Origin: Thermodesulfobacteriota bacterium
Lineage (GTDB): Bacteria > Desulfobacterota > WTBG01 > JAGOGO01
Length of the DNA stretch: 32,000 nt
Reading direction: 5' to 3'
Assembly (NCBI GenBank): GCA_026625185.1
Contig: CP113000.1
Coordinates: 2,205,622-2,237,621, forward strand
Of this stretch, positions 12,922 through 26,007 are shown piece after piece. Below the pieces are notes generated by a model, which was not told the origin of the DNA, made no database searches, and saw nothing but the letters and a program-made list of their open reading frames with translations. Position 1 is the first letter of the stretch; each line of letters opens with the position of its first letter. The position numbers were made by a program, and so were the translations under genes.

Positions 12922-12938
12922 AGAACATTTTATTTTTC

Positions 12939-13141
12939 TTGACTTTTTTATAGAAAAAGGTTAAAAATAAAAAAAATTATTTGACCAAAATAAATGTTTT
13001 TAGGATGACTTGATCGGAAACCCAATCTAATGAACTTGAAAAAGAATCCTTTTGAGATGAGTGCGAGGAGAAGGATTTAAATGAGTTTAAAATAAGGCCG
13101 CATTGCCGGATAGAAAAGGTGAGAGGCCTTTTCCGTTTTTT
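12939..13141 (+). ncRNA. Promoter plus small RNA/leader module, copy A (diverged, with ~45-nt insertion)
   Basis: TTGACT (12939-12944), 17-bp spacer, TAAAAA(T). Then the conserved core ttgagatgagtgcgagga...aatgag...aaggccgcattgccggatagaaaaggtgagaggcctttt followed by a T-run. Homologous to 18934-19075 and 21638-21781. Confidence 0.4.
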
Positions 13142-13363
13142 GGGGACGGAAAATATTTGGTCGCAGCGTTCCAAACTTATAGGGAGATTACCGGGCTTGT
13201 TTTTTCATGACCAAAGTTGCAGGTATTAGTTTGAAAAAGAAAAAAACAGGTCGTCTCAAAGAAAAGAGTTGCTGACCCTGAGGAAGTTTACACTTGGTTG
13301 CCTTGATAGGTGTGAGAATAGATAAGTTAAATCATCCTTAATAACAAAGGAAGGGATATCTGA

Positions 13364-15349
13364 ATGCCCGAAGCAGAAGATCTTTTAAAAGAAGGGCAAT
13401 CATATTTTTTAGGGGGGGATTATGAAAGAGCGATACCTTATTTTAAAGAAGCAATAGATAAAAATTCTCTTATTGCCGGAGCCTACTTTGGTTTAGGCTC
13501 TGCTTTTAGCAGGCTCGGTCGCTACCCGGAAGCCGTGGAAGCTCTTAAACAAGCTGTAAGCCTGCACCCGGGTGACGCTGAAGCCCACCGTAATCTGGGC
13601 GGGGCTTATTACAACCTCGGCCGCTATCAGGAAGCAGTTGAAGCTCTTAAACAGGCTATCCGCCTGCACCCGGATGATGCCTATGCGCACTGTATTTTGG
13701 GGGGGGCCTATATAAACTTCGGCCGCTCTGAGGAAGCCGTGGAAGCTTTTAAACAGGCTATCAGCCTGAACTCGGGTGAAGCCTACGTCCACTCTCTTCT
13801 GGGCGGGGCTTATATGGACCTGGGCCGTCACCAGGAAGCCGTGGAAGCTTTTAAACAGGCTATCAGCCTGAACCCGGATGATGCAGATGCCTACATTAAC
13901 CTGGGCGAGGCTTATTTCAAGTTCGGCCGTCACCAGGAAGCCGTGGAGGCTATTAAAAAGTCCATCAGCCTGAAACCGGATGATTCCTACGGGCATTGTA
14001 TTTTGGGCGGGGCTTATATGAACCTGGGCCGTCATCAGGATGCCGTGGAAGCTTTTAAACAGGCTATCAGCCTGAACCCGGATGATGCTTACGCCCATTG
14101 TATTCTGGGTGGGGCCTATATGAACCTGGGCCGCTATCAGGAAGCCATGGAAGCTCTTAAACAGGCTATCAGCCTAAATCCTGATGATGTAGATGTAGAT
14201 GCCCACAATAACCTGGCCGAGGCTTATTTCAAACTCGGTCGCCATCTAGAAGCAGTGGAAGCTATTAAGCAGGCTATCGACCTGAAACCGGATTTTGCTG
14301 ATGCACACCGTATTCTGGGCGGTGCTTGTTATAACCTGGGCCGTTATCAGGAAGCAGTGGAAGCTTATAAACAGGTTGTCAGCCTGCATTCGGATGATGC
14401 CTATGCTCACTATAACCTGGGTGAGGCTTATGTCAAGCTGGGCCGGCATCCGGACGCCGTGGAAGCTTATAAACAGGCTATCCGGCTGAACCCGGATTTT
14501 CCTGAAGCCCACTATAAACTGGGAAAGAATTATGACACGCTCGGCCGTCAAAAAGAAGCAGTGGACGCTATTAAACAGGCTATCCGCTTAAACCCGAACA
14601 ATGTAGATGCCCACCATAACCTGGGGGTGATTTATTTCAAGCTGGGCCGGCATGAGGAAGCACTGGAAGCTTATAAACAAGCCGTCCTCCTTAAACCCGC
14701 TGATGCTTACGCCCACTGTATTTTGGGTGGGGCTTATATGAACCCAGGCCGCCATGAGGAAGCGGTGGAAACCTTTAAACAGGCTATTGTTCTTAAACCG
14801 GATGATCCCTACGCCTACTATAACCTGGGGGTGAATTATTTCGAGCTGGACCGCCATCAGGAAGCAGTGGACGCTTTTAAACAGGCTGTCCGCCTAAAGC
14901 CCGATTTTGCCGATGTTCACAATAACCTGGGTAAAAATTATGACACGCTTGGCCGCCATCTGGAGGCTGTGGAAGCTTTTAAACTGGCGGTCCGCCTGAA
15001 ACCCGATTTTGCTGAAGCCCACTATAACCTGGGGGTGAATTATAGCAAGCTCGGTCAGCATAAAGAAGCCGTGGAAGCTTTTAAACAGGCTATCCTTCTG
15101 AACCCGGATGATGCCGATGCCCACTATAACCTGGGTATGGTTTATTTCAAGCTCGGTCGTCATCAGGAAGCAGTGAAAGCTTTTAAACAGACTATCTTTC
15201 TGAAACCGGATTTTGCCGATGCCCACTATAATCTGGGAATAATTTTTTTATTTCTCCACAATAAAGGCTCAGCCCTGGAGGAATATAAAATTTTGAAAGA
15301 TTTGAATCAAGATAAGGGTGATGAGTTGTTTAACGCAATTTATGAATAA
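13364..15349 (+). CDS. TPR repeat protein (~19 consecutive 34-aa TPR units)
   Basis: Near-identical units such as HQEAVEAFKQAISLNPDDAYAHCILGGAYMNLGR repeat along the whole protein. Confidence 0.9.
   Translation: MPEAEDLLKEGQSYFLGGDYERAIPYFKEAIDKNSLIAGAYFGLGSAFSRLGRYPEAVEALKQAVSLHPGDAEAHRNLGGAYYNLGRYQEAVEALKQAIRLHPDDAYAHCILGGAYINFGRSEEAVEAFKQAISLNSGEAYVHSLLGGAYMDLGRHQEAVEAFKQAISLNPDDADAYINLGEAYFKFGRHQEAVEAIKKSISLKPDDSYGHCILGGAYMNLGRHQDAVEAFKQAISLNPDDAYAHCILGGAYMNLGRYQEAMEALKQAISLNPDDVDVDAHNNLAEAYFKLGRHLEAVEAIKQAIDLKPDFADAHRILGGACYNLGRYQEAVEAYKQVVSLHSDDAYAHYNLGEAYVKLGRHPDAVEAYKQAIRLNPDFPEAHYKLGKNYDTLGRQKEAVDAIKQAIRLNPNNVDAHHNLGVIYFKLGRHEEALEAYKQAVLLKPADAYAHCILGGAYMNPGRHEEAVETFKQAIVLKPDDPYAYYNLGVNYFELDRHQEAVDAFKQAVRLKPDFADVHNNLGKNYDTLGRHLEAVEAFKLAVRLKPDFAEAHYNLGVNYSKLGQHKEAVEAFKQAILLNPDDADAHYNLGMVYFKLGRHQEAVKAFKQTIFLKPDFADAHYNLGIIFLFLHNKGSALEEYKILKDLNQDKGDELFNAIYE
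13480..15230 (+). repeat. 102-bp tandem DNA periodicity underlying the TPR array
   Basis: Strings such as caggaagccgtggaagcttttaaacaggctatcagcctgaacccggatgatgc recur every 102 nt with few changes. Confidence 0.8.
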
Positions 15350-17833: not shown

Positions 17834-18331
17834 TCAGACCTTTCCTCTTGCCAGGAGATCGACCCGTTTCAGCAAGGCTGGGACCCGATGAGAGCCGTGC
17901 ATCACCTTGATTCTTCCTGCCGCCGTATAAGGATCTACTCCGGCAGAGGTCACATACAAAGGCCTTTTGCTCTCCCCTCTGAAAACTTCCACTCCGAATG
18001 AGTCCCGGTACTGTGATTTTGCCACGCCAATGACGCGGGTCCTCCCCGCAAAGAACTCAAAGAGATGCTTGCCAAGACCGGGCCGGTCTCCGAGCATCAC
18101 ATAACCATCAATGAGCATCTCTTCGGGAGTTTCATTGAATTGCTCAACCACCCTGAGAATACAGGGAAGCTCGCGTCGGTAAAACTGGCCGGGTAGGTAT
18201 TGAGTGACTCCGTCGGTGAGTCCGACGTATTCTAAGGCAGGTTCGGGATCGGTATATTGGTGGAAAAGCACCGCCCCCGCCGATGCTCGTCCGTCAGCAA
18301 AGTAGTGAACATCAAAAGCTGCGATCATCAT
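17834..18331 (-). CDS. Endonuclease V family protein (short, 165 aa)
   Basis: Aligns by eye to E. coli Nfi. IAAFDVHY matches IAGADVGF. YLPGQFYRRELPCIL matches YIPGFLSFREYPALL. LIDGYVMLGDRPGLGKH matches VFVDGHGISHPRRLGVASH. Further matches are IGVAKS, PLYVTSAG and RVPALLKRVD. Confidence 0.7.
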   Translation of the reverse strand: MMIAAFDVHYFADGRASAGAVLFHQYTDPEPALEYVGLTDGVTQYLPGQFYRRELPCILRVVEQFNETPEEMLIDGYVMLGDRPGLGKHLFEFFAGRTRVIGVAKSQYRDSFGVEVFRGESKRPLYVTSAGVDPYTAAGRIKVMHGSHRVPALLKRVDLLARGKV

Positions 18332-18542
18332 TCACCTTATCTCGGCGCTCTGCATGGGGCGTAGACTGCGATAATTGAGCCAGGTCAGGGAACAATCAGG
18401 TCACCGATAGTACGATATGCGTTATTACTCTGAACTATGGGGTTAAAAATTCAAGGGGATCACTAAAATGATTTTTGATTTTCTGTAACAATGGCAGTTA
18501 AATACTTTTATTCTCACCAAATCTGGAGGAGGGATGAAAAAA

Positions 18543-18895
18543 ATCGCGCCCCATGCGGGCGCGTGGATGGAAACCAGTTAGTCTGTTTTTCAGAAATCCT
18601 AGTTCATACCTTGCGTCCCATCTGGGTGCTTTGAATGAAACTCATTCACAAGATTCCCGGAACCCAGATTCATCCTTTGTGTCCCTTGTAGGCGCAAGGA
18701 TTGAAACGAGCTCGTTGAGTTCCAGGGACCCTTGTTCATCCGCCGCATCCCTGGCTTGCGCAGGGATTTAAACTAGTCCCTCCACTCCCGGGAGATCTAG
18801 TTCATCCGCGCGTCCCATGTGGGTGCTTTTAATTTTAATATATACCCAAATGATATTTTGTCAAATCGCGCCCACGCGCGCGTGGATGGAAAAAC
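18543..18895 (+). CRISPR. Orphan CRISPR-repeat-derived tandem array, copy 1 (6 repeat-like units, ~66-nt period, no cas genes)
   Basis: The first unit atcgcgccccatgcgggcgcgtggatggaaac and the last unit atcgcgcccacgcgcgcgtggatggaaaaac resemble the type I-C consensus GTCGCGCCCC....GGGCGCGTGGATTGAAAC. Internal units end at 18641, 18707, 18773 and 18839 and are degenerate. The spacer-like segments share 3' halves (..ttcccggaacccagattcatcc / ..ttccagggacccttgttcatcc / ..ctcccgggagatctagttcatcc). Confidence 0.5.
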
Positions 18896-18933
18896 AAAAA
18901 ACAGTTGGAAGTGGCTGATTTTTTTCTTTTTTC

Positions 18934-19075
18934 TTGACTTTTTTCTCCTCATAGGTTAAAAACAGAAAAATATTTACTTAAAAAGAGAATATTTTTGAGA
19001 TGACTGCGAGGAAAAAATCCAATGAGCGTAAAGAAAGGCCGAATTACCAAATGAAAAGGTGATGGTCCTTTTTTG
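18934..19075 (+). ncRNA. Promoter plus small RNA/leader module, copy B (upstream of the permease gene)
   Basis: TTGACT (18934-18939), 17-bp spacer, TAAAAA (18957-18962). The core is ttgagatgactgcgaggaaaaaatccaatgagcgtaaagaaaggccgaattaccaaatgaaaaggtgatggtcc followed by tttttt. Confidence 0.4.
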
Positions 19076-19184
19076 TTGTGATACTTTCCATAAAAGAAAT
19101 AGCAAATTTTTTGATTACAATTATAAGGGAAACCATAAGTTTTTATTTTTAACAAGGTCTCCTTAATTCATAACTCTAAATTGT

Positions 19185-20756
19185 TTGGATTTCTCAATGT
19201 ACGTGGGCATACCTTTTGTTCAAAGAGACTATATCCGCAATCAACACAGATTCTGGGGAGAAATAACCGCTTTTCTCGCTCTGTTTTTTGATAACGTCGG
19301 AACGCTGATATTTTTCAGTGCGATTCTTGTTTTCACTTTCAACTATCCCCCCGATATTATTCTGACGCGCATGATCCCGGGTACAGCTGTCGGAATTTGC
19401 GTAGGCGATCTTGTCTATACGTGGTTCGCCATCCGTTTGAGACAAAAATACGGACACGCCGATGTCACGGCGATGCCCCTGGGTATCGATACACCTTCAA
19501 CCATCGGCATTGCCTATGCTGTCATGGGCCCCGCGTATATCGCCACTCATGACGCGCAGCTCACGTGGCACATCGGCATGGCCACTCTTTTCATGATCGG
19601 CGTTGTTAAAATATTTACCTCTTTTTTCGGTGGATGGGTTCAGCGCATCATTCCCACCGCGGGGCTGCTGGGGCCGCTCGCCGGAATTGGGCTTCTGCTG
19701 CTCGGATTTCTGCCATTGCTCGAAATATTCAATGAGGCTGTCATTGGCATGATCGCCATGGGTCTTATCTTTTCGGCGCTCATGAGCAAGCTGAAGCTGC
19801 CGGGCCGCTTCCCCGGTGTTCTTGCCGCAGTTCTTCTCGGCACGGGTATTCATTTTGCTCTGGGATATGGCGGATACCTTCCGGAATTCACCGCACCGAC
19901 TCTGAAAATGAATTTTTTTTTACCCGCTTTTTCTATCGACTTTTTCAAAACACTGCCACAAAGCATTCAGTATCTGACCATCGCCATCCCTTTCGGCATC
20001 CTGACGATAATCGGCGGCATCAATAATACGGAAAGTGCCCGTCTGGCAGGCGACGACTACCGGACGAGAGATATCTTGCTTACGGAGGCATTCTCATCGC
20101 TGATCGCGGCTTTCTTCGGTGGTGTGGCGCAAACCACGCCCTATATCGGCCATCCGGCATACAAAAAGATGGGCGCGACCTGGTGGTATACACTTCTGAC
20201 AGGACTACTTGTCGGCATCGGCTCCGTGGTCGGACTGCTTTCACTTTTTGTCAGTGTAATTCCACGGGCAGTTATTGGGCCAATTTTTATCTTTATCGGT
20301 TTTGAAATTATTCGTCAGGCCTACAAGGATTCGCCGCCGGCTCATTCTCCTGCGGTAAGCTTAAGCTTTCTGCCTGTTGTCGCCAGTATGGTGCTAATAA
20401 TTCTGGGCCAGTTCATGGGCGCAATGGACGCCACGCCGGATAAATTGCCGTTGCGTTTGCAAATCATGCATCAATCACTGACAATGCTCAGTAACGGCTT
20501 TATTCTAACGGGGCTTCTCTGGGGCAGTATGCTGGCTTTTCTTATTGATCACAAAGCGCGACAGGCAGCTCTTTGCAGTGCTGTCTGCGCCGTGTTGACT
20601 CTCTTCGGCATTATCCATTCGGTGATGCCTAGCGGTGAACTCTACCTGCCCTGGCTGATTACAACTCATGCCCACTACATGCTCGCTGTGGCTTACTTTG
20701 CGCTATCCTGCATCCTGCTTTTGTTGACCGGAAAAACAGATAAAACAGAGGTATAA
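19185..20756 (+). CDS. Polytopic permease, probably NCS2/AzgA-related nucleobase transporter family
   Basis: 523 aa, almost entirely hydrophobic helices. Segments such as DVTAMPLGIDTPSTIG and TTPYIGHPAYKKMGA recall xanthine/uracil-type permease relatives. An ATG at 19197 is an alternative to the TTG at 19185. Clearly more GC-rich than its flanks. Confidence 0.55.
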   Translation: MDFSMYVGIPFVQRDYIRNQHRFWGEITAFLALFFDNVGTLIFFSAILVFTFNYPPDIILTRMIPGTAVGICVGDLVYTWFAIRLRQKYGHADVTAMPLGIDTPSTIGIAYAVMGPAYIATHDAQLTWHIGMATLFMIGVVKIFTSFFGGWVQRIIPTAGLLGPLAGIGLLLLGFLPLLEIFNEAVIGMIAMGLIFSALMSKLKLPGRFPGVLAAVLLGTGIHFALGYGGYLPEFTAPTLKMNFFLPAFSIDFFKTLPQSIQYLTIAIPFGILTIIGGINNTESARLAGDDYRTRDILLTEAFSSLIAAFFGGVAQTTPYIGHPAYKKMGATWWYTLLTGLLVGIGSVVGLLSLFVSVIPRAVIGPIFIFIGFEIIRQAYKDSPPAHSPAVSLSFLPVVASMVLIILGQFMGAMDATPDKLPLRLQIMHQSLTMLSNGFILTGLLWGSMLAFLIDHKARQAALCSAVCAVLTLFGIIHSVMPSGELYLPWLITTHAHYMLAVAYFALSCILLLLTGKTDKTEV

Positions 20757-20794
20757 ATTGGGGCGACCGGATACAGCGAAACCGAATAGGGCAA

Positions 20795-21041
20795 GGTCTC
20801 CGAGCAACACATAACCATCAATGAGCATCTCTTCGGGAGTTTCATTGAATTGCTCAAGCAACCTGAGAATACAGGGAAGCTCGCGTCGGTAAAACTGGCC
20901 GGGTATGTATTGAGTGACTTCGTCTGTGAGTCCGACGTATTCTAAGGCAGGTTCGGGATCGGTATAATGGTGGGAAAGCACCGCCCCCGTCGATGCTCGT
21001 CCGTCAGCAAAGTAGTGAACATCAAAAGCTGCGATCATCAT
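20795..21041 (-). pseudogene. Truncated second copy of the EndoV-like gene (N-terminal ~82 codons only)
   Basis: The track ORF 20703-21041 matches the 17834-18331 protein from MMIAAFDVHYFADGRAS through ...LIDGYVLLGD. Homology then ends at the repeat boundary (~20795) and an unrelated tail follows. Confidence 0.75.
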
Positions 21042-21254
21042 TCACCTTATCTCGGCGCTCTGCATGGGGCGTAGACTGCGATAATTGAGCCAGGTCAGGG
21101 AACAATCAGGTCACCGATAGTACGATATGCGTTATTACTCTGAACTATGGGGTTAAAAATTCAAGGGGAAAAACTATTATTGATTATTGATTTTCTCTAA
21201 CAATGGCAGCTGAATAGTTTTATTCTCACCAAATCTGGAGGAGGGATGAAAAAA

Positions 21255-21596
21255 ATCGCGCCCCATGCGGGCGCGTGGATGGAAACCAGTTAGTCTGTTT
21301 TTCAGAAATCCTAGTTCATCCCTTGCGTCCCATTTGGGTGCTTTGATTGAAACTCGTCAACCTGGTTCCAGAAACCTCAATTTATTTTTTGCGTCTCCTG
21401 TGGGCGCAAGTTTTTCAGTTCCAGGAACTCTGGTTCAACCGCCGCATCCCTGGCTCGCGCAAGAATCTAAACTAGTCCCTTCACTCCCAGGAGCTCCAGT
21501 TCATCCGCGCGTCCCATGCGGGTGCTTTTAGTTATAATATATACATCAAATGAAATTTTGTCAAATCGCGACCAGTGCGGGTGCGTGAATTGAAAC
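21255..21596 (+). CRISPR. Orphan CRISPR-repeat-derived tandem array, copy 2
   Basis: The first unit is identical to copy 1 (atcgcgccccatgcgggcgcgtggatggaaac). The last unit is atcgcgaccagtgcgggtgcgtgaattgaaac. Interior units are homologous to copy 1 but carry many substitutions and a ~10-nt deletion. Confidence 0.5.
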
Positions 21597-21637
21597 ACAA
21601 AAAAACAGTTGGAAGTGGCTGATTTTTTTCTTTTTTC

Positions 21638-21781
21638 TTGACTTTTTTCTCCTCATAGGTTAAAAACAAAAAAATATTTACTTAAAAAGAGAATATTTTT
21701 GAGATGACTGCGAGGAAAAAATCCAATGAGCGTAAAGAAAGGCCGAATTGCCAAATTAAAAGGTGATGGGCCTTTGTTTTC
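21638..21781 (+). ncRNA. Promoter plus small RNA/leader module, copy C (upstream of the SIR2 gene)
   Basis: TTGACT (21638-21643), 17-bp spacer, TAAAAA (21661-21666). The core is nearly identical to copy B, ending ggtgatgggcctttgtttt. It lies ~95 nt before the ATG at 21875. Confidence 0.4.
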
Positions 21782-21874
21782 TTTGAGAAGCACCCAAAAA
21801 TAGATGTTTGAATTAACTATCAAGTCAGACAGAGATAAACAATCAGTTTAACGAATTGGTGAAGAGGTATTTTG

Positions 21875-22798
21875 ATGAATATTGATCTTGTTCCCGACAT
21901 TAAAAAATATCCCCATATTTATGACTCCCACAAGAATAATAAGTTAATCATATTTGTTGGTGCGGGGATGTCGTCCCTTTGGTGATGCAAGAGATGGAAG
22001 GACATGGCGGTTTCTCTAATTGAGTCTTGTTATGAGCTTGAGGCTATAGATTATTGGGCACGGGAAAATCTTTTAACTAAATATGCCATTTCGCCACGCA
22101 AACTGATAACGATCGCCAAAAGTATACTTGGTGAAAAAAAGTACTTGGAGGTTTTAAAAAGAACTCTTCAAATTTGGCCTGAACGAAAGGGAAAATTACC
22201 GAATCTTTTTAACAACCTATTAGCCCTTAACGCTATTTATATCACTACTAATATTGATGACCATTTTTCAGGCCTGTTTGAAAAAAAAGATGTGCATTTC
22301 GAACAAAATGATTTCTCTTCCTCAGTTCTTAAACCAAAAAATATTATCCATTTACACGGAATTATTAATAATCCCCATAGTCTTGTTTTAACTATTGATG
22401 AATATGTTGAACGTTATCAAAATAATCATTTTAGAAAATTTTTAGAATATATCTTTTTTAATGAAGACTATTGCTTTCTTTTTGTTGGTTATGGTGTTGA
22501 TGAAATGGAAATTATTGACTTCATGATTGAGAAATACAGCACTGGGCCAGAGACCTTGAAAAAGCTTATCTATCGCTATTATATTTTATTACCTTTTTTC
22601 CAGAATGAAGAAACCTTAATGAGATATGAACAATTTTATTTTGATCAAATCAATATGACGGTGATTCCTTATGCGATTAACGCAAAAGGATATGATCAAT
22701 TAAATGAGGTAATCGCAACATGGAGAGAAGAATTTGAGAAACAGGGGCAACGAGATGAATTTTATATATTTAATAAAATCATTGAGAAAAATTTATGA
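21875..22798 (+). CDS. SIR2_2-family (defence-type sirtuin/NADase-like) protein, interrupted by an in-frame TGA at codon 37
   Basis: The track ORF starts at 22004. The same frame opens at the ATG at 21875 (gaagagg SD 6-12 nt upstream) and encodes MNIDLVPDIKKYPHIYDSHKNNKLIIFVGAGMSSLW-TGA-CKRWKDMAV.... Motifs present: IIFVGAGMS (Rossmann GAG), ITTNIDDHF (catalytic Asn box), IIHLHGII (catalytic His 35 residues after the Asn) and FLFVGYGVDEMEI. Confidence 0.75.
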
Positions 22799-25700
22799 AC
22801 ATACTTAATGCAGAAGAACAACAAGTACTTTATTTGATAAAAACGGATGCTGATCAGGCTAATTATTTTTTTACTCAAGCAAAATCATTAAAATGGTTTT
22901 ATCCTCTGAAAGATCAAGGGTATTTTTGTCCTGATCACATCCCCTACGATTCAAATGGCAATGCCCTGTTTTGGAATGTTCTCGATTATCTTAAGCGAGT
23001 TTCCGAACAGGTTGAACAGAATTCCGTATACGGTGAAGAATTAATTAACATCATCGGTAGCGTTGTTTACTTCTCGCAAAATGAAAAACAGATCAATAAC
23101 TATCATATCTGGAAGTACTGCGTAAAAATCCTAAATAATCTTCCTGTCGCGATTATTAAAAAATATCTCACGATCGAAGAATTTCGCTCGTGGCTTTCGG
23201 TTTGGACTACTTTTTCTGAGGGAAAAGTTCTACCCATAACACTAATTGGGGGAAGTCTTTTGCCAAAATTTCTTGCCGGAGATTCAACAATTGAATACGT
23301 CGAGACCATTATTGACGTAATCACGTGCATCAAGCTTAGCGGGAAATTTCATCCACTAACGAAGGTTGACGAGATTATTTTAGCCTACAGTTCATACTGG
23401 ATCAGGGATGCTTTTAAAAAAAATTATGAACTAATAGGCCAAAAATGTTCTTTGAACGCTATTTATATTCTTGCTGACAAATTAAAGAAGGTTTTAGAAC
23501 ATAAACAAAAAAAACATTCTGGCAACATAGAGATTGGCGAGGATGTTTATCACATTGAAGTATCAAGAGTCCCCGCAGAAAAATTAAAAGCAGGTGAAAT
23601 TGGATTTCAAGACGGGCAATTCCAGTGTGTGGTTAAACAGTTTTCTCGGCAACAGCTTCAGGATGTTGGCGGGGATCACAGTTACTGGGCGCTTTATAAA
23701 ACTGAACCGCAGATTGAGGTAAAGCAATTTAGTTTTACAGCTATGAGGCAAGAAGCATTCTTGAAGACTATTATAGAAAACTTGCCTCGGGATATTGAGT
23801 GGACTAAGTCTACAAATTTTGACGAAAAACTAAAATATATATTTAAGGGACTTCATGCGGATTATTCTGAAATATGGTTAAAATCCATTGCGAGCGGCGG
23901 TCAAGATTATGAAAGGGACGCCGAAGAAGTTTTAGCCATCATTTTACGCGATATTTTGCTGGCAAAATGTGAAGCAAATAAATCTGAAGGCAAGAAGATA
24001 CTATGTTCGTTTCTAAGCGATCATTATCAATTCCCTATTTTTAGAAGGTTTGTTTTGCTTTGTATTGATAAATACTGGATCAATTTCTATGATCTTTTTG
24101 ATAAATTTTTTGAAATAGTTCCAACTGCCTTGGAAGAATCGGCTTACGAGGTAGAGTTGTATGATATTTTAGTCAACCACAATCAGGAATTTAACCTCGG
24201 CCTTAGAACGAATCTGAAAGAACTAATTGATAATGTCCCTGCATACTATGTCAAAGAAGGTGAAAAACTAACAGAGTATTGGAAATACAAATGGCTCTCC
24301 CCATTGCGGCACAATCCCGATTTTTCCGCCTTGTATGAAAAAGCAAAACAAAAAACCGAACCAAAAGATGGTAAGCCTTATGAACCCAGGCGTTTAAGCT
24401 TTGAAGCTGGTGTGGTCAGTCATAAGTCGCCAATCTCCAAAGAAGAGATTTTGGAAATGCCTGTTTCCGAATTTGTGAAGTATTTAAGTGAATTTAAAGG
24501 AGCAGACTTTTGGCGTGGGGCTTTTGATGGGGAGCCCGACAAAGAAGGACTTGCCGAGGCGTTTCACGCGGCGGTAAAAGAGAATCCCAAGAAATTTACT
24601 GACGAAATAGATGCTTTTTGGGGTGTTGATTATTTTTATCTACATAAGGGATTGTTTTGGGGATTTAGGGAAGCGTGGACTGCTAAAAATGAACTTGATT
24701 GGGAAAAAATTTTTAATTTCATTCTAAAATATTTCAAGCGAAATAAAGAATGTATTCTAAAAGAAGCATTTCAGGCTCAAGGAAACGATAGCGGGGAGGG
24801 TAAATATATTTATCTTGTCGATGATGTTGTTGGCTTAATCGCTGATGGATGCAGGGATGATGCACGAGCGTTTGATTTAAAGTATTTCGATAAGGCAAAT
24901 CAAATTTTTGAATTGGTGTTACCCTTACTTAAAGGGGAAAAAAATCCTGACACACAAAGAGATGCCTTGAGCTATGCCATGAATACAACGCTTGGTAAGA
25001 CAATTGAGGCGTATATTTCTTTTGCGTTGAGGGCAACAGGGGCCACAAAGGAAAAAGAAGAGAATTGGGGAGAGATAAAGTTTGAACGTTTTTTTACTAA
25101 AGGTGGTATAGAGGCATACATATGGTTTGGGTGTTATCTCCCACAGATGAAATATTTGGATGAGAAGTACACGGAAGAAAAAATAAAACTTTTTGCCTTA
25201 AAAAAAGCAGATGACTTTAAATGGCAGATGTTTATGGAAGGGTATCTGTTCGCCCACAAAGTATATCCAGATCTATATTCTTTAATGCGGGCTCATTATA
25301 TAATGGCCTTAGAAAATAAAATATTCGAAGAACGGATAGATCGTCGGCTTGTTTCCCATATTGCTTTGGGATATTTATATTACGGAGAGAGCCTCCAGGA
25401 AAAAAATCCAGATGGGAACTCCAGTTTATTCTGGAAGATGCTAACCGAAGCTGGTGCGAGAGGTAAAAGTGATCGATGGTTAGAGATAGCTGGATTTTTT
25501 TGGTCGGAAGGAGAGGGGATGGTAAGGAAAACGAAAAAGGATGTTGAAGGGAAATCTTCCGAAGAAATTAAAAAGAAAATTTTGGATTTCTGGTGTTGGA
25601 CTTATAACCAACAGAAACTCGCAGAAGAGAACTTGGGTGATAGATACAATGCTTTCTTAGAACGAATGGCAAAATTAACCATTTTTTTAGACTCGATTGA

Positions 25701-26007
25701 TGAAGAAAACGAAAAGTGGTTGCTTCTATGCGCCCCGCATGTTGCTCGTCAGTATGATGAGATGTTCTTTATTGAATCCTTAACCAAATTCGAAGACCTA
25801 GAAAGCATTAAGCGGATCGGTAAAATTTTTTGGCAGGTATTGGAGAATGCTACCCCTACCTTTAAACAGGAAAATATAGAGCTTATTGTCCGTAGAATTT
25901 TTGAAGTCGCCCCTAATATTGCTGAGGATATTTGCAATATTTACGGCAGGCGAGGTGTTCATTTCCTTAGGCCTATTTGGGAAGAATATCAGAAAAAGAA
26001 ATATTGA
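22795..26007 (+). CDS. Large (1070 aa) protein of unknown function, partner of the SIR2 gene
   Basis: Uninterrupted 3.2-kb ORF whose ATG overlaps the SIR2 stop (ATGA at 22795-22798). Rich in W/F/Y/K/E. No Walker A, nuclease, protease or TM motif found by eye. Composition suggests a helical repeat-like protein. Confidence 0.8.
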   Translation: MNILNAEEQQVLYLIKTDADQANYFFTQAKSLKWFYPLKDQGYFCPDHIPYDSNGNALFWNVLDYLKRVSEQVEQNSVYGEELINIIGSVVYFSQNEKQINNYHIWKYCVKILNNLPVAIIKKYLTIEEFRSWLSVWTTFSEGKVLPITLIGGSLLPKFLAGDSTIEYVETIIDVITCIKLSGKFHPLTKVDEIILAYSSYWIRDAFKKNYELIGQKCSLNAIYILADKLKKVLEHKQKKHSGNIEIGEDVYHIEVSRVPAEKLKAGEIGFQDGQFQCVVKQFSRQQLQDVGGDHSYWALYKTEPQIEVKQFSFTAMRQEAFLKTIIENLPRDIEWTKSTNFDEKLKYIFKGLHADYSEIWLKSIASGGQDYERDAEEVLAIILRDILLAKCEANKSEGKKILCSFLSDHYQFPIFRRFVLLCIDKYWINFYDLFDKFFEIVPTALEESAYEVELYDILVNHNQEFNLGLRTNLKELIDNVPAYYVKEGEKLTEYWKYKWLSPLRHNPDFSALYEKAKQKTEPKDGKPYEPRRLSFEAGVVSHKSPISKEEILEMPVSEFVKYLSEFKGADFWRGAFDGEPDKEGLAEAFHAAVKENPKKFTDEIDAFWGVDYFYLHKGLFWGFREAWTAKNELDWEKIFNFILKYFKRNKECILKEAFQAQGNDSGEGKYIYLVDDVVGLIADGCRDDARAFDLKYFDKANQIFELVLPLLKGEKNPDTQRDALSYAMNTTLGKTIEAYISFALRATGATKEKEENWGEIKFERFFTKGGIEAYIWFGCYLPQMKYLDEKYTEEKIKLFALKKADDFKWQMFMEGYLFAHKVYPDLYSLMRAHYIMALENKIFEERIDRRLVSHIALGYLYYGESLQEKNPDGNSSLFWKMLTEAGARGKSDRWLEIAGFFWSEGEGMVRKTKKDVEGKSSEEIKKKILDFWCWTYNQQKLAEENLGDRYNAFLERMAKLTIFLDSIDEENEKWLLLCAPHVARQYDEMFFIESLTKFEDLESIKRIGKIFWQVLENATPTFKQENIELIVRRIFEVAPNIAEDICNIYGRRGVHFLRPIWEEYQKKKY

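Follow-up and report, generated by a model that had tools for sequence, protein, structure and literature searches.

A 32,000-nt stretch of a Smithella (Syntrophales) genome (hereafter referred to as the window) contains a tandem series of type I-C-like CRISPR repeat units. This raises the question of whether the locus is the worn remnant of a CRISPR array or a domesticated repeat-derived RNA, such as the CreA part of CreTA modules, both of which had been suggested in an earlier note on this DNA. We addressed this question through the anatomy of the units, the relationships between their spacers, and the arrangement of the locus in related genomes.

Repeat units and upstream region

The array comprises six repeat units on the plus strand (18543-18893; Table 1), with unit-to-unit periods of 67, 66, 66 and 65 nt, followed by a last interval of 57 nt; the count of six units in the earlier note was correct, but the period of 66-67 nt that it gave does not extend to this last interval. 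The first repeat, R1, belongs to the GTCGCGCCCC...GGATTGAAAC repeat family linked to I-C cas genes. It is identical to the canonical repeat GTCGCGCCCCATGCGGGCGCGTGGATTGAAAC at 30 of 32 positions (31 of 32 in the related locus L130) and forms a 7-bp G-C stem (-14.3 kcal/mol). The R1 sequence is the same in both copies of the array in the window (copies A and B, see below) and in locus L129, and L130 and L103 carry a T variant; two exact matches to this 32-mer were found, with none expected by chance. In a genome scan with the repeat, the GGATGGAAAC variant was confined to the source lineage.

The repeats are not near-identical along the array. As previously proposed, the four internal units are degenerate, with 9 to 13 mismatches to the canonical repeat in each of R2 to R5, and R2 to R4 have 20-22 of their 32 positions in common with R1. 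In copy B, R3 is truncated. R5 is closest to R2 (direct-repeat family D1, 92% over 24 nt), and its plus strand is terminator-like in copy A only. The terminal repeat, R6, has a 3-nt deletion in copy A and its full 32 nt, with 26 matches, in copy B. The better conservation attributed to the terminal units is, thus, clear for R1 and only modest for R6. The 15-codon ORF (ATG at 18534) with GGAGGAGGG was found again and is identical in copies A and B, and its stop codon is not conserved in a relative. A protein-coding reading of the array was rejected, as its ORFs have no homologues except their own sequence and copy-to-copy indels break the frames.

The region upstream of R1 has no conserved leader: most of the ~60 canonical I-C leaders listed have in common a GGTTCGCGAAA-like box and an ..ACA junction, both of which are missing here, and the region ends in GGAGGAGGGATGAAAAAAA.

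Table 1. Location of the array, its units and the surrounding features (positions in the window).
Feature	Position	Strand	Copy B	Remarks
Duplicated block of ~1 kb, copy A	18085-19074	.		Direct repeat families D4-D7, spacing ~2.7 kb; alignment with copy B
Duplicated block, copy B	20795-21778	.		Pairwise alignment with copy A
Endonuclease V gene, divergent from the array	17834-18331	-	20703-21041 (truncated duplicate)	PF04493, 2.5e-08; 5' 247 nt inside the duplicated block
Region upstream of R1	18332-18542	+	21042-21254	Not a canonical I-C leader
R1, near-canonical I-C-type repeat	18543-18574	+	21255-21286	
S1-R2-S2-R3-S3-R4-S4, degenerate internal units with mutually homologous spacers	18575-18806	+	21287-21505	Unit alignment; 13-nt deletion at the R3/S3 junction in copy B
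R2	18610-18641	+		Internal repeat
R3	18676-18707	+		Internal repeat
R4	18742-18773	+		Internal repeat
R5, degenerate, T-rich 3' end	18807-18838	+	21506-21537	
S5, short AT-rich spacer unrelated to S1-S4	18839-18864	+	21538-21564	
R6, terminal repeat	18865-18893	+	21565-21596	
Promoter-like site TTGACA-16-TATATT in S5/R6	18837-18864	-	21536-21564	17-nt spacer in copy B
Intrinsic-terminator-like site, R1 hairpin then AUUUUUUUCA	18535-18563	-	about 21247-21275	
Promoter (TTGACT, 18934-18939) and conserved small-RNA/leader element with terminator hairpin at its end	18923-19088	+	21627-21792	Further copy at 12928-13148

Hairpins of the repeat units

Six of the seven stem pairs are retained through G-U pairs in R2 and R5, as the earlier note had stated, and likewise in R3, in which the reported change of the closing pair from C-G to U-A was also confirmed. 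The perfect shifted stem described for R4 was found only in copy A; copy B and the relatives have a disrupted version. The summed folding energy of the units was no better than that of randomly mutated canonical repeats (P 0.3-0.5). Stem-pair retention was somewhat above that in simulated decay (P 0.01-0.07), with P values uncorrected for the shared ancestry of the units. Whole-transcript folding was equally good for the two strands (z of -5.6 and -5.7), which is uninformative, because such values are expected for any palindromic repeat array.

Spacers and target searches

The spacers S1 to S4 are mutual copies rather than the unique, singly acquired spacers of a I-C array. The mean pairwise identity of their 3' 24 nt was 0.63 in copy A and 0.62 in copy B, versus 0.26 for 107 real spacers from one Smithella I-C array, and none of 20000 random quartets of these real spacers reached the observed identity; the self-similarity claimed for the spacers is therefore real. 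All four share a GTTCCAGGAAC-like palindrome and a CTAGTTCATCC end. Of the motifs proposed to pair with this end from the 3' ends of the repeats, GAATGAA was found in R2, but GGATGAA lies just upstream of R1 instead.

Seed scoring with a TTC PAM check identified no spacer target above chance on either strand of the window. Only chance-level matches were obtained in the type III locus (L129, L131, L133 and L135) and in the promoter regions downstream of each array copy, and two scans of viral contigs with spacer patterns gave no match. The best seed match in a promoter region was that of S5 of copy B, with the PAM TCA; it was equalled in 3 of 300 shuffles among 15 tests and is not conserved.

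A duplicated block carries two copies of the array

The whole array structure recurs at 21255-21596, because a block of ~1 kb is duplicated. In copy A, the block comprises the degenerate array with its upstream region, the promoter/small-RNA element and, on the minus strand, the 5' part of the endonuclease V gene; copy B has the same content, but its endonuclease V gene is truncated, with a 5' fragment at 20795-21041. The two block copies are followed by a gene for a purine permease and by a broken DSR1 defence gene.

The two copies are 96-99% identical in their flanks and 81% identical from R2 to S4. From R2 to S4, copy B shares 98% identity with the array next to cas6 in L129, versus 94% for the adjacent endonuclease V fragment, a difference that can be explained by recent gene conversion or transfer. 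Copies A and B differ by 41% in S2 and 6% in R2, and the differences between the arrays of L129 and L130 lie mostly inside R1-S1; together, these contrasts point to unit shuffling and gene conversion. The greater conservation of repeats than of spacers between copies A and B (Fisher P 0.0065) was considered as a sign of constraint on the repeats and rejected, as S2 alone drives it. There are at least two, and probably three, paralogous copies of the array.

cas genes and synteny in related genomes

The absence of cas genes from the 32 kb was confirmed by a scan of all large ORFs, and none was found in the 10 kb past the right end of the window. The array is, nevertheless, cas-less only within the window. 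In a sister Smithella lineage, a homologous and equally degenerate array lies directly upstream of cas6, with flanks about 92-96% identical (Cas6 PF10040, 9e-19; the CARF gene Cas_NE0113 PF09623, 3e-67). The array is about 260 nt upstream of cas6 in L103, L129 and L130, followed by Cas_NE0113, cas10, csm2 and RAMP genes, and it has the same orientation as cas6 in L129 and L130. A degraded array adjacent to type III genes is therefore present in L129, L130 and L103 and not in the window itself. The same "small-RNA" promoter element also precedes cas6 in the sister lineage. Locus L131, from a MAG that also holds a window-type contig, starts inside a further array copy and runs into the type III operon (99.97% identity to L129), so this MAG holds cas6 and csm genes as well. 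According to the earlier note, a cas operon with the same repeat elsewhere would speak against its proposal; such an operon largely exists, but the adjacent genes are those of a type III system with cas6, not of a I-C system.

More distant cas6-NE0113 loci have no array. No I-C-type repeat was detected in L133 or L135, and no direct repeats were detected around cas6 in L133 and L135-L138 (Cas6 identities of 64-86%). Likewise, endonuclease V orthologues at ~60% identity have no array upstream, and the permease homologues of three relatives lie in another neighbourhood, with neither the array nor the small-RNA element. The assignment of the window to Smithella/Smithellaceae follows from the source names of the permease homologues.

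The repeat core was recovered in 94 stretches of public genomes from many phyla, mostly multi-repeat arrays, none of which is homologous to the window beyond the repeat. All 59 arrays with listed first repeats contained the full 32-mer. In Smithella sp. M82, the canonical repeat follows Cas7-Cas4-Cas1-Cas2 and a leader. This Cas6 and the Csm genes were absent from the up to 8 kb fetched around each of the 94 canonical arrays.

The adjacent promoter/small-RNA element

The element downstream of the array is an independent, dispersed module. Its covariance model gave hits of 105-144 bits to three copies in the window, to two in L129, and in L130 and L135, and its terminator stem covaries in the family alignment. 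It occurs without the array upstream of a TPR gene in the window (the copy at lower coordinates in Table 1) and upstream of cas6 in L135. L129 and L135 carry frameshifts in its small ORF (MTARKK...). The window had no match in Rfam at gathering scores, and the hits of a permissive scan of 18300-19200 were rejected as spurious (GibS, snoRNAs and a 19-bit CRISPR-DR9 fragment). Given the independence of the element from the arrays and the frameshifts of its ORF between homologues, the CreTA-like link between array and small RNA put forward in the earlier note is not supported.

Origin of the array

We consider the element to be a decaying type I-C-family CRISPR array that expanded through duplication of its units and that later was copied and became separated from its cas genes, with a probability of about 0.62. 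The decay suggested in the earlier note is supported by the equally degenerate homologue upstream of cas6, Cas_NE0113 and the type III Csm operon. This reading is preferred to the CreTA-like one because there are no targets with a TTC PAM, the small-RNA module is independent, its ORF is frameshifted, and the stability of the hairpins does not exceed that of random decay; on these four points, the suggestion of a domesticated repeat-derived RNA, or of a CreA, is not supported. On present evidence, the locus is an ordinary relic, not a new RNA device.

The ancestral order would have been the endonuclease V gene (minus strand), the non-canonical upstream region, the array, the promoter/leader element, cas6, the Cas_NE0113 CARF gene, a toxin-antitoxin pair and cas10-csm2-csm3-csm4-csm5, and this presumed arrangement is still present in the sister lineage. 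With no canonical I-C leader and no adjacent adaptation genes, the array would be unable to take up spacers. The segment from S1 to R5 probably arose through tandem duplication and unequal recombination of one repeat-spacer unit, followed by drift. The inverted pattern of decay, with good ends, would then result mainly from the origin of the internal units as tandem copies of a single repeat-spacer unit that had already degenerated. The array block of ~1 kb would subsequently have been copied in this genome, and both copies uncoupled from cas6 by rearrangement at the end of the promoter/leader element, leaving them before the purine permease gene and the broken DSR1 gene. Recognition by a Cas nuclease could persist at most for R1 and, in copy B, R6. 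There is no evident guide with a target, and the sequence can be explained without a dedicated function; we infer both the loss of function and the order of events.

Some observations count against a relic. R1 is intact at 30-31 of 32 positions whereas 9-13 positions are lost in R2-R5, and uniform neutral decay would predict similar losses in all units. The array is retained in multiple paralogous copies, stem-pair retention is somewhat above that of simulated decay, and, read on the opposite strand, the array has a near-consensus promoter at one end and a strong terminator at the other.

Alternative explanations

These opposite-strand signals might indicate that the relic is reused as a transcription unit, generating an antisense RNA of ~290 nt (about 18830 to 18537) or a leader by which the terminator would control the endonuclease V gene. 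S5/R6 would supply a sigma-70 promoter (TTGACA-16/17-TATATT) with 11 of 12 consensus matches, and only three such sites are present in the 32 kb (64 kb for both strands), two of which are those of array copies A and B. The antisense R1 hairpin (7 G-C pairs, a 5-nt loop and a U7 tail) passes a terminator scan, and none of the canonical I-C leaders listed has the run of seven A that precedes R1. The promoter hexamers are conserved in A, B, L129 and L130, and the promoter and terminator signals are identical in all four. Reuse of this kind, with selection that would act on promoter and terminator signals rather than on a CRISPR function, would account for both array ends being the best kept and for the survival of the terminal units in all paralogous copies. 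Nevertheless, the 12 promoter positions would remain unchanged by chance with a probability of 8-21% at 12-19% divergence, so their conservation is not significant. Moreover, a promoter can be mimicked by an AT-rich spacer, an antisense RNA of this kind has no known conserved ORF or target, the two strands fold equally well, and the scans yield consensus matches only. We therefore regard this reuse as unlikely.

The position of the array upstream of cas6, in the same orientation in L129 and L130, would also suit an unusual but working source of guides for the neighbouring type III (Csm) system, in which Cas6 would cut R1 (and R6). R1 retains the hairpin and the ATTGAAAC-type 3' tag, and the type III operon and a window-type contig occur in one MAG. 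Such a source is improbable, as is its fuller version, in which one crRNA or a few, for instance S1, would be loaded and the window copies would serve as spares in trans: the spacers are mutual copies with no detectable target, R3 has no 3' tag left in either copy B or the cas6-linked copies, cas6 loci of relatives work with no array beside them, and Cas6 cutting of I-C-type repeats is only putative, given that none of the 94 canonical arrays has this Cas6 or the Csm genes in its fetched surroundings of up to 8 kb. We give slightly less credence still to a CreA/CreR-type regulator, in which a Cas effector guided by a single unit such as R5-S5-R6 would repress the downstream promoter, and equally little to its combination with a promoter that drove cas6 ancestrally and drives the permease or DSR1 gene here. 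The order of a degenerate repeat, a short spacer and a better repeat, 38 nt from a promoter, does resemble the I-B regulatory mini-arrays upstream of cas6 (PMC10120712; PMC8501985). However, seed matches with a TTC PAM are absent from the promoter regions of L129 and of both window copies, the best match is that of S5 of copy B described above, type I effector genes were not found nearby, the promoter element also occurs without the array, and the candidate toxin ORF lacks conservation. The most doubtful role appears to be that of a protein sponge or an autoregulatory site, the hairpins of which would bind Cas6 (or Cas5c) and titrate it or feed back on cas6. Several hairpins keep 6 of 7 pairs, the array is directly upstream of cas6 in relatives, and RNA anti-CRISPRs built from repeat mimics are known (PMC10651486), but the hairpin energy is no better than that of random decay, a separate promoter and terminator lie between the array and cas6, the neighbouring genes are chromosomal, and a search for a mobile-element origin matched none of 50,697 phage and 72,556 plasmid records.

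Comparison with known systems and significance

As a decaying array, the locus can be compared with several known types. R1 (30-31 of 32 positions), its hairpin, its 3' end and the period of ~66-67 nt are those of canonical I-C arrays (Smithella sp. M82, loci L028 and L047), which differ from the array studied here in having a leader box, homogeneous repeats, unique spacers and nearby Cas1-Cas2-Cas4 or Cas5-Cas8c-Cas7 genes. Like the array described here, orphan CRISPR arrays are located far from cas genes, have few units and are kept in related strains, as for RliB of Listeria, the array of which is reportedly processed by a housekeeping RNase. In contrast to those of the window, the repeats of orphan arrays are usually uniform and their spacers distinct.

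In a published survey, the positions of repeat-like mini-arrays next to type III loci were not conserved and targets were absent, and these elements were judged degraded and non-functional (PMC10120712, Shmakov et al. 2023). The array resembles them in its type III neighbour in relatives, its lack of targets, its degenerate distal repeats and a position that is not conserved in more distant relatives. It differs from them in having six units rather than one or two, spacers that are mutual copies, a repeat of the I-C family rather than one linked to type III systems, and a duplicated block separated from cas genes. CreTA modules lie in or next to the type I cas operon that provides their effector, and their small toxic RNA has a strong ribosome-binding site. 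Degenerate repeats flanking a spacer-like segment near a promoter and a small RNA gene are also found in CreTA and in Cas-regulating crRNA-like RNAs (PMC8501985; PMC10120712), but no type I effector operon surrounds the array, in the window or beside the homologous arrays, and neither a PAM-bearing partial spacer match nor a conserved rare-codon toxin is present. RNA anti-CRISPRs (Racr) and crRNA-like RNAs of phages occur on phage, prophage or plasmid DNA, in many cases next to acr genes, as single repeats or mini-arrays, and act by binding Cas proteins and preventing complex formation (PMC10651486; bioRxiv 10.1101/2024.10.29.618823). The repeats of the window resemble these in mimicking repeats away from a functional array and in their potential to bind Cas proteins, but the locus is chromosomal, lies among chromosomal and defence genes, and has no mobile-element match.

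The locus calls for caution, in that a cas-less and odd-looking array in a 32-kb window turns out to be a worn cas6/type III array once sister strains are compared. As a relic, it records growth by repeat-spacer duplication instead of spacer uptake, patchy gene conversion between copies, and copying and uncoupling from cas genes at a dispersed promoter/leader element. If the promoter and terminator on the opposite strand were active, CRISPR repeat material would have been recycled into ordinary transcription signals, and this would bear on how arrays decay and are reused.

Structure of the array and of the duplicated block

The array consists of six type I-C-related repeat units (R1-R6) separated by five spacer-like segments (S1-S5), with unit periods of 67, 66, 66, 65 and 57 nt. 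Of the 32 positions of the canonical repeat GTCGCGCCCCATGCGGGCGCGTGGATTGAAAC, R1 (ATCGCGCCCCATGCGGGCGCGTGGATGGAAAC) shares 30, whereas R2-R5 deviate from it at 9-13. S1-S4 are mutually homologous: all have a palindrome resembling GTTCCAGGAAC and end in CTAGTTCATCC. The mean identity of their 3' 24 nt was 0.63, versus 0.26 for 107 real spacers from a Smithella I-C array, and no random quartet of real spacers came near this value (0/20000). S5 is short and AT-rich, with no kinship to the other spacers. The earlier description of a six-unit array with self-similar spacers was thus correct, apart from four small points. The period of 66-67 nt is about right for the earlier intervals, but the last is shorter; of the terminal units, said to be the best conserved, R1 is well kept but R6 only modestly better than R2; the perfect R4 stem is present, but exclusive to one of the two copies of the array (copy A); and the GGATGAA placed in the repeat 3' end lies upstream of R1, outside any repeat. 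In each of S1-S4 (18642-18806 and 21354-21505), the palindrome is short and centred on CCNGG (TTTCAGAAA, TTCCCGGAA, GTTCCAGGGAC and CTCCCGGGAG), retained in unit 4 via a register shift. The loop is too short for an RNA hairpin; the palindrome could be a legacy of a founding spacer, or a protein-binding or modification site.

A segment of about 1 kb (18085-19074, copy A) is found again at 20795-21778 (copy B). The block contains the 5' 247 nt of an endonuclease V gene (minus strand), 211 nt of upstream region, the array, and a promoter with a small-RNA-like element that closes with a terminator hairpin. The truncated endonuclease V frame is a pseudogene born of the block duplication. Copies A and B share 96-99% identity in their flanks but only 81% in the R2-S4 interior; copy A has a 3-nt deletion in R6, and copy B lacks 13 nt at the R3/S3 junction. 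Between the copies lies a purine permease gene, the homologues of which bear Smithella or Smithellaceae names and so assign the source organism to this group. The DSR1 defence gene after copy B (21875-26007) is split, with an in-frame TGA (21983-21985) behind 36 N-terminal codons including a GAGMS motif; its two pieces gave PADLOC Dsr1 scores of 3e-65 and 6e-103, and the gene calls are identical in other assemblies. The strongest tandem-repeat signal of the window comes from an ordinary repeat-protein gene (TPR, 13364-15349; 661 aa), in which a 102-nt unit is repeated in tandem about 17 times (73% identity).

Coordinates of the features in the window and in related loci
Feature	Sequence	Position	Strand
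Six type I-C-related repeat units (starts)	Window	18543, 18610, 18676, 18742, 18807, 18865	+
Endonuclease V gene, full	Window	17834-18331	minus
Endonuclease V duplicate, 5' part only, then frame into unrelated sequence	Window	20703-21041	
DSR1 SIR2 part (ORF overlapping the next)	Window	22004-22798	
DSR1 remainder, 1070 aa (ORF overlapping the SIR2 part)	Window	22795-26007	
Element copy upstream of TPR gene	Window	12928-13148	
Element copy after array copy A	Window	18923-19088	
Element copy after array copy B	Window	21627-21792	
Element copies	L129	221-351; 7232-7360	
Element copy	L130	3889-4017	
Element copy	L135	3841-3972	

Repeat family and leader

A scan with the repeat core, with one genome per species, identified 94 stretches. 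The first repeat was the full canonical 32-mer in all 59 for which it was listed, and none of the 94 loci displayed homology to the window beyond the repeat. In Smithella sp. M82, the canonical repeat stands after Cas7-Cas4-Cas1-Cas2 and a leader, constituting a type I-C system; the GGATGGAAAC variant occurs in the source lineage only. Most of the canonical I-C leaders listed (loci L007-L097, from many phyla) have a GGTTCGCGAAA-like box about 55 nt before the first repeat and terminate in ..ACA. The region upstream of the array in the window has neither, terminating instead in GGAGGAGGGATGAAAAAAA, and the array is thus without the flanking sequence that spacer uptake would be expected to need. 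In three of the other genomes (L010, L027 and L051), a solitary canonical I-C repeat is preceded by a short spacer-like segment and a degenerate repeat, an arrangement that resembles regulatory mini-arrays of the CreA/CreR type.

Relationship to cas6 and a type III locus

A metagenome scan anchored on the endonuclease V protein revealed no I-C-like repeat upstream of orthologues at about 60% identity. In L103/L119, a close relative at about 90% identity, the array occurs in its copy-B form, with the promoter/leader element immediately downstream, then a gene of the Cas6 family (PF10040, 9e-19) and a CARF gene, Cas_NE0113 (PF09623, 3e-67). Two longer contigs with an identical Cas6 (L129 and L130) carry two radical-SAM genes, a resolvase, endonuclease V (minus strand), the upstream region, the degenerate array and the element, and then cas6, Cas_NE0113, a toxin-antitoxin pair, cas10 (Csm1), csm2 and three further genes (two RAMPs). 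This operon is a type III Csm locus, and the left-hand genes are 93-96% identical to those of the window at the nucleotide level. This is probably the ancestral neighbourhood; both array copies of the window would have lost cas6 at one same point, just past the terminator of the element. As an observation, the finding in the earlier note is real, but its reading as a cas-less and perhaps domesticated array fails; the sister-lineage array precedes a cas6/type III locus.

One metagenome-assembled genome (GCA_029216075.1) contains both a contig 99.9% identical to the window (JARDUI010000945.1) and another (JARDUI010001011.1) starting inside R5 of yet another array copy, followed by cas6 and the Csm operon. 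The latter is 99.97% identical to L129, save for its first 30 nt, which have copy-B variants; either a third, cas-linked copy in the source genome or a co-binned sister strain would explain it.

The cas6-Cas_NE0113 pair was found in five more distant loci (L133 and L135-L138; Cas6 identity 64-86%). I-C-type repeats were searched for in L133 and L135 and not found, no direct repeats of any kind surround cas6 (0/5 loci), and L135 retains the element before cas6. Neither this Cas6 nor the Csm genes occurred near the 94 canonical arrays (up to 8 kb fetched around each). The array thus accompanies the type III locus as a lineage-specific passenger and is no fixed part of it.

Together, the promoter (TTGACT at 18934) and the following element of about 130 nt constitute a separate, dispersed family, members of which lie upstream of unrelated genes (TPR, permease, DSR1 and cas6). 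A covariance model constructed for this analysis gave the copies scores of 105-144 bits. Their core (GAGATGACTGCGAGGA) is conserved, the terminator hairpin is long and has two covarying stem pairs, and no Rfam family matches. Members differ by frameshifts in a small ORF within the element, which is therefore an RNA or leader rather than a peptide gene, and may represent a Smithella family of small RNAs or leaders not yet described. The element sits 38 nt from R6, a closeness previously likened, as a speculation, to CreTA pairing. This comparison was not borne out: as the element also occurs without arrays, the spacing reflects the old cas6 promoter region.

Tests for function

For the spacers of all copies, searches of the window, the type III locus and the promoter regions behind the arrays gave no credible target, and no seed match in these sequences carried the I-C TTC PAM. 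The best seed match from 15 tests (copy B S5 at the DSR1 start region, PAM TCA) was attained in 3 of 300 shuffles, and the other copies lack it. Viral contigs yielded no spacer matches and, with regard to a mobile origin, phage and plasmid collections yielded no match either. The ORFs that cross the array lack protein homologues, and the stop of the 15-codon ORF over R1 is changed in one relative.

R2, R3 and R5 retain six of seven stem pairs, largely through C-to-U changes leaving G-U, with one compensatory pair in R3. Stem-pair retention somewhat exceeded simulated random decay (P 0.01-0.07, shared ancestry ignored), but summed folding energy was no better (P 0.3-0.5). Neither this folding energy nor the target searches support domestication as a functional RNA. 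Between copies A and B, internal repeats differ by 10.9% and spacers by 25.8%; as this gap is driven by S2 alone (41%), it indicates unit exchange, not constraint on point mutations. Over 15034 positions, L129 and L130 show 21 differences (99.86% identity), five of which fall within R1-S1 (L129 6824-6890; L130 3481-3547), a patch of gene conversion and a sign of patchy recombination in the array.

The opposite strand offers another reading. At the S5/R6 junction, it carries TTGACA-16-TATATT, matching the sigma-70 consensus at 11 of 12 positions (17-nt spacer in copy B), and two of the only three such near-consensus sites on both strands of the window are these junctions. The R1 hairpin, with seven G-C pairs followed by AUUUUUUUCA, would be a textbook intrinsic terminator; the canonical I-C leaders listed do not have the A-run that gives rise to its U-tract. 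These signals, identical in all copies examined, would bound an RNA of about 290 nt that runs antisense to the array and stops about 200 nt short of the endonuclease V start codon, and would account for the well-kept terminal units. We nevertheless consider such a transcript improbable: the case consists of consensus matches, conservation of the signals is not compelling in statistical terms given this divergence, and folding is equally good on either strand.

The array is probably a decaying I-C-family array, expanded by unit duplication. In the sister lineage, it stands in front of the cas6/type III locus; in the genome of the window, it has been copied and would have been uncoupled from the cas genes. 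More generally, the GGTTCGCGAAA-like box and ..ACA end could provide a quick test of a working leader in I-C-type arrays. We regard the array as a further case of a type of relic already known.
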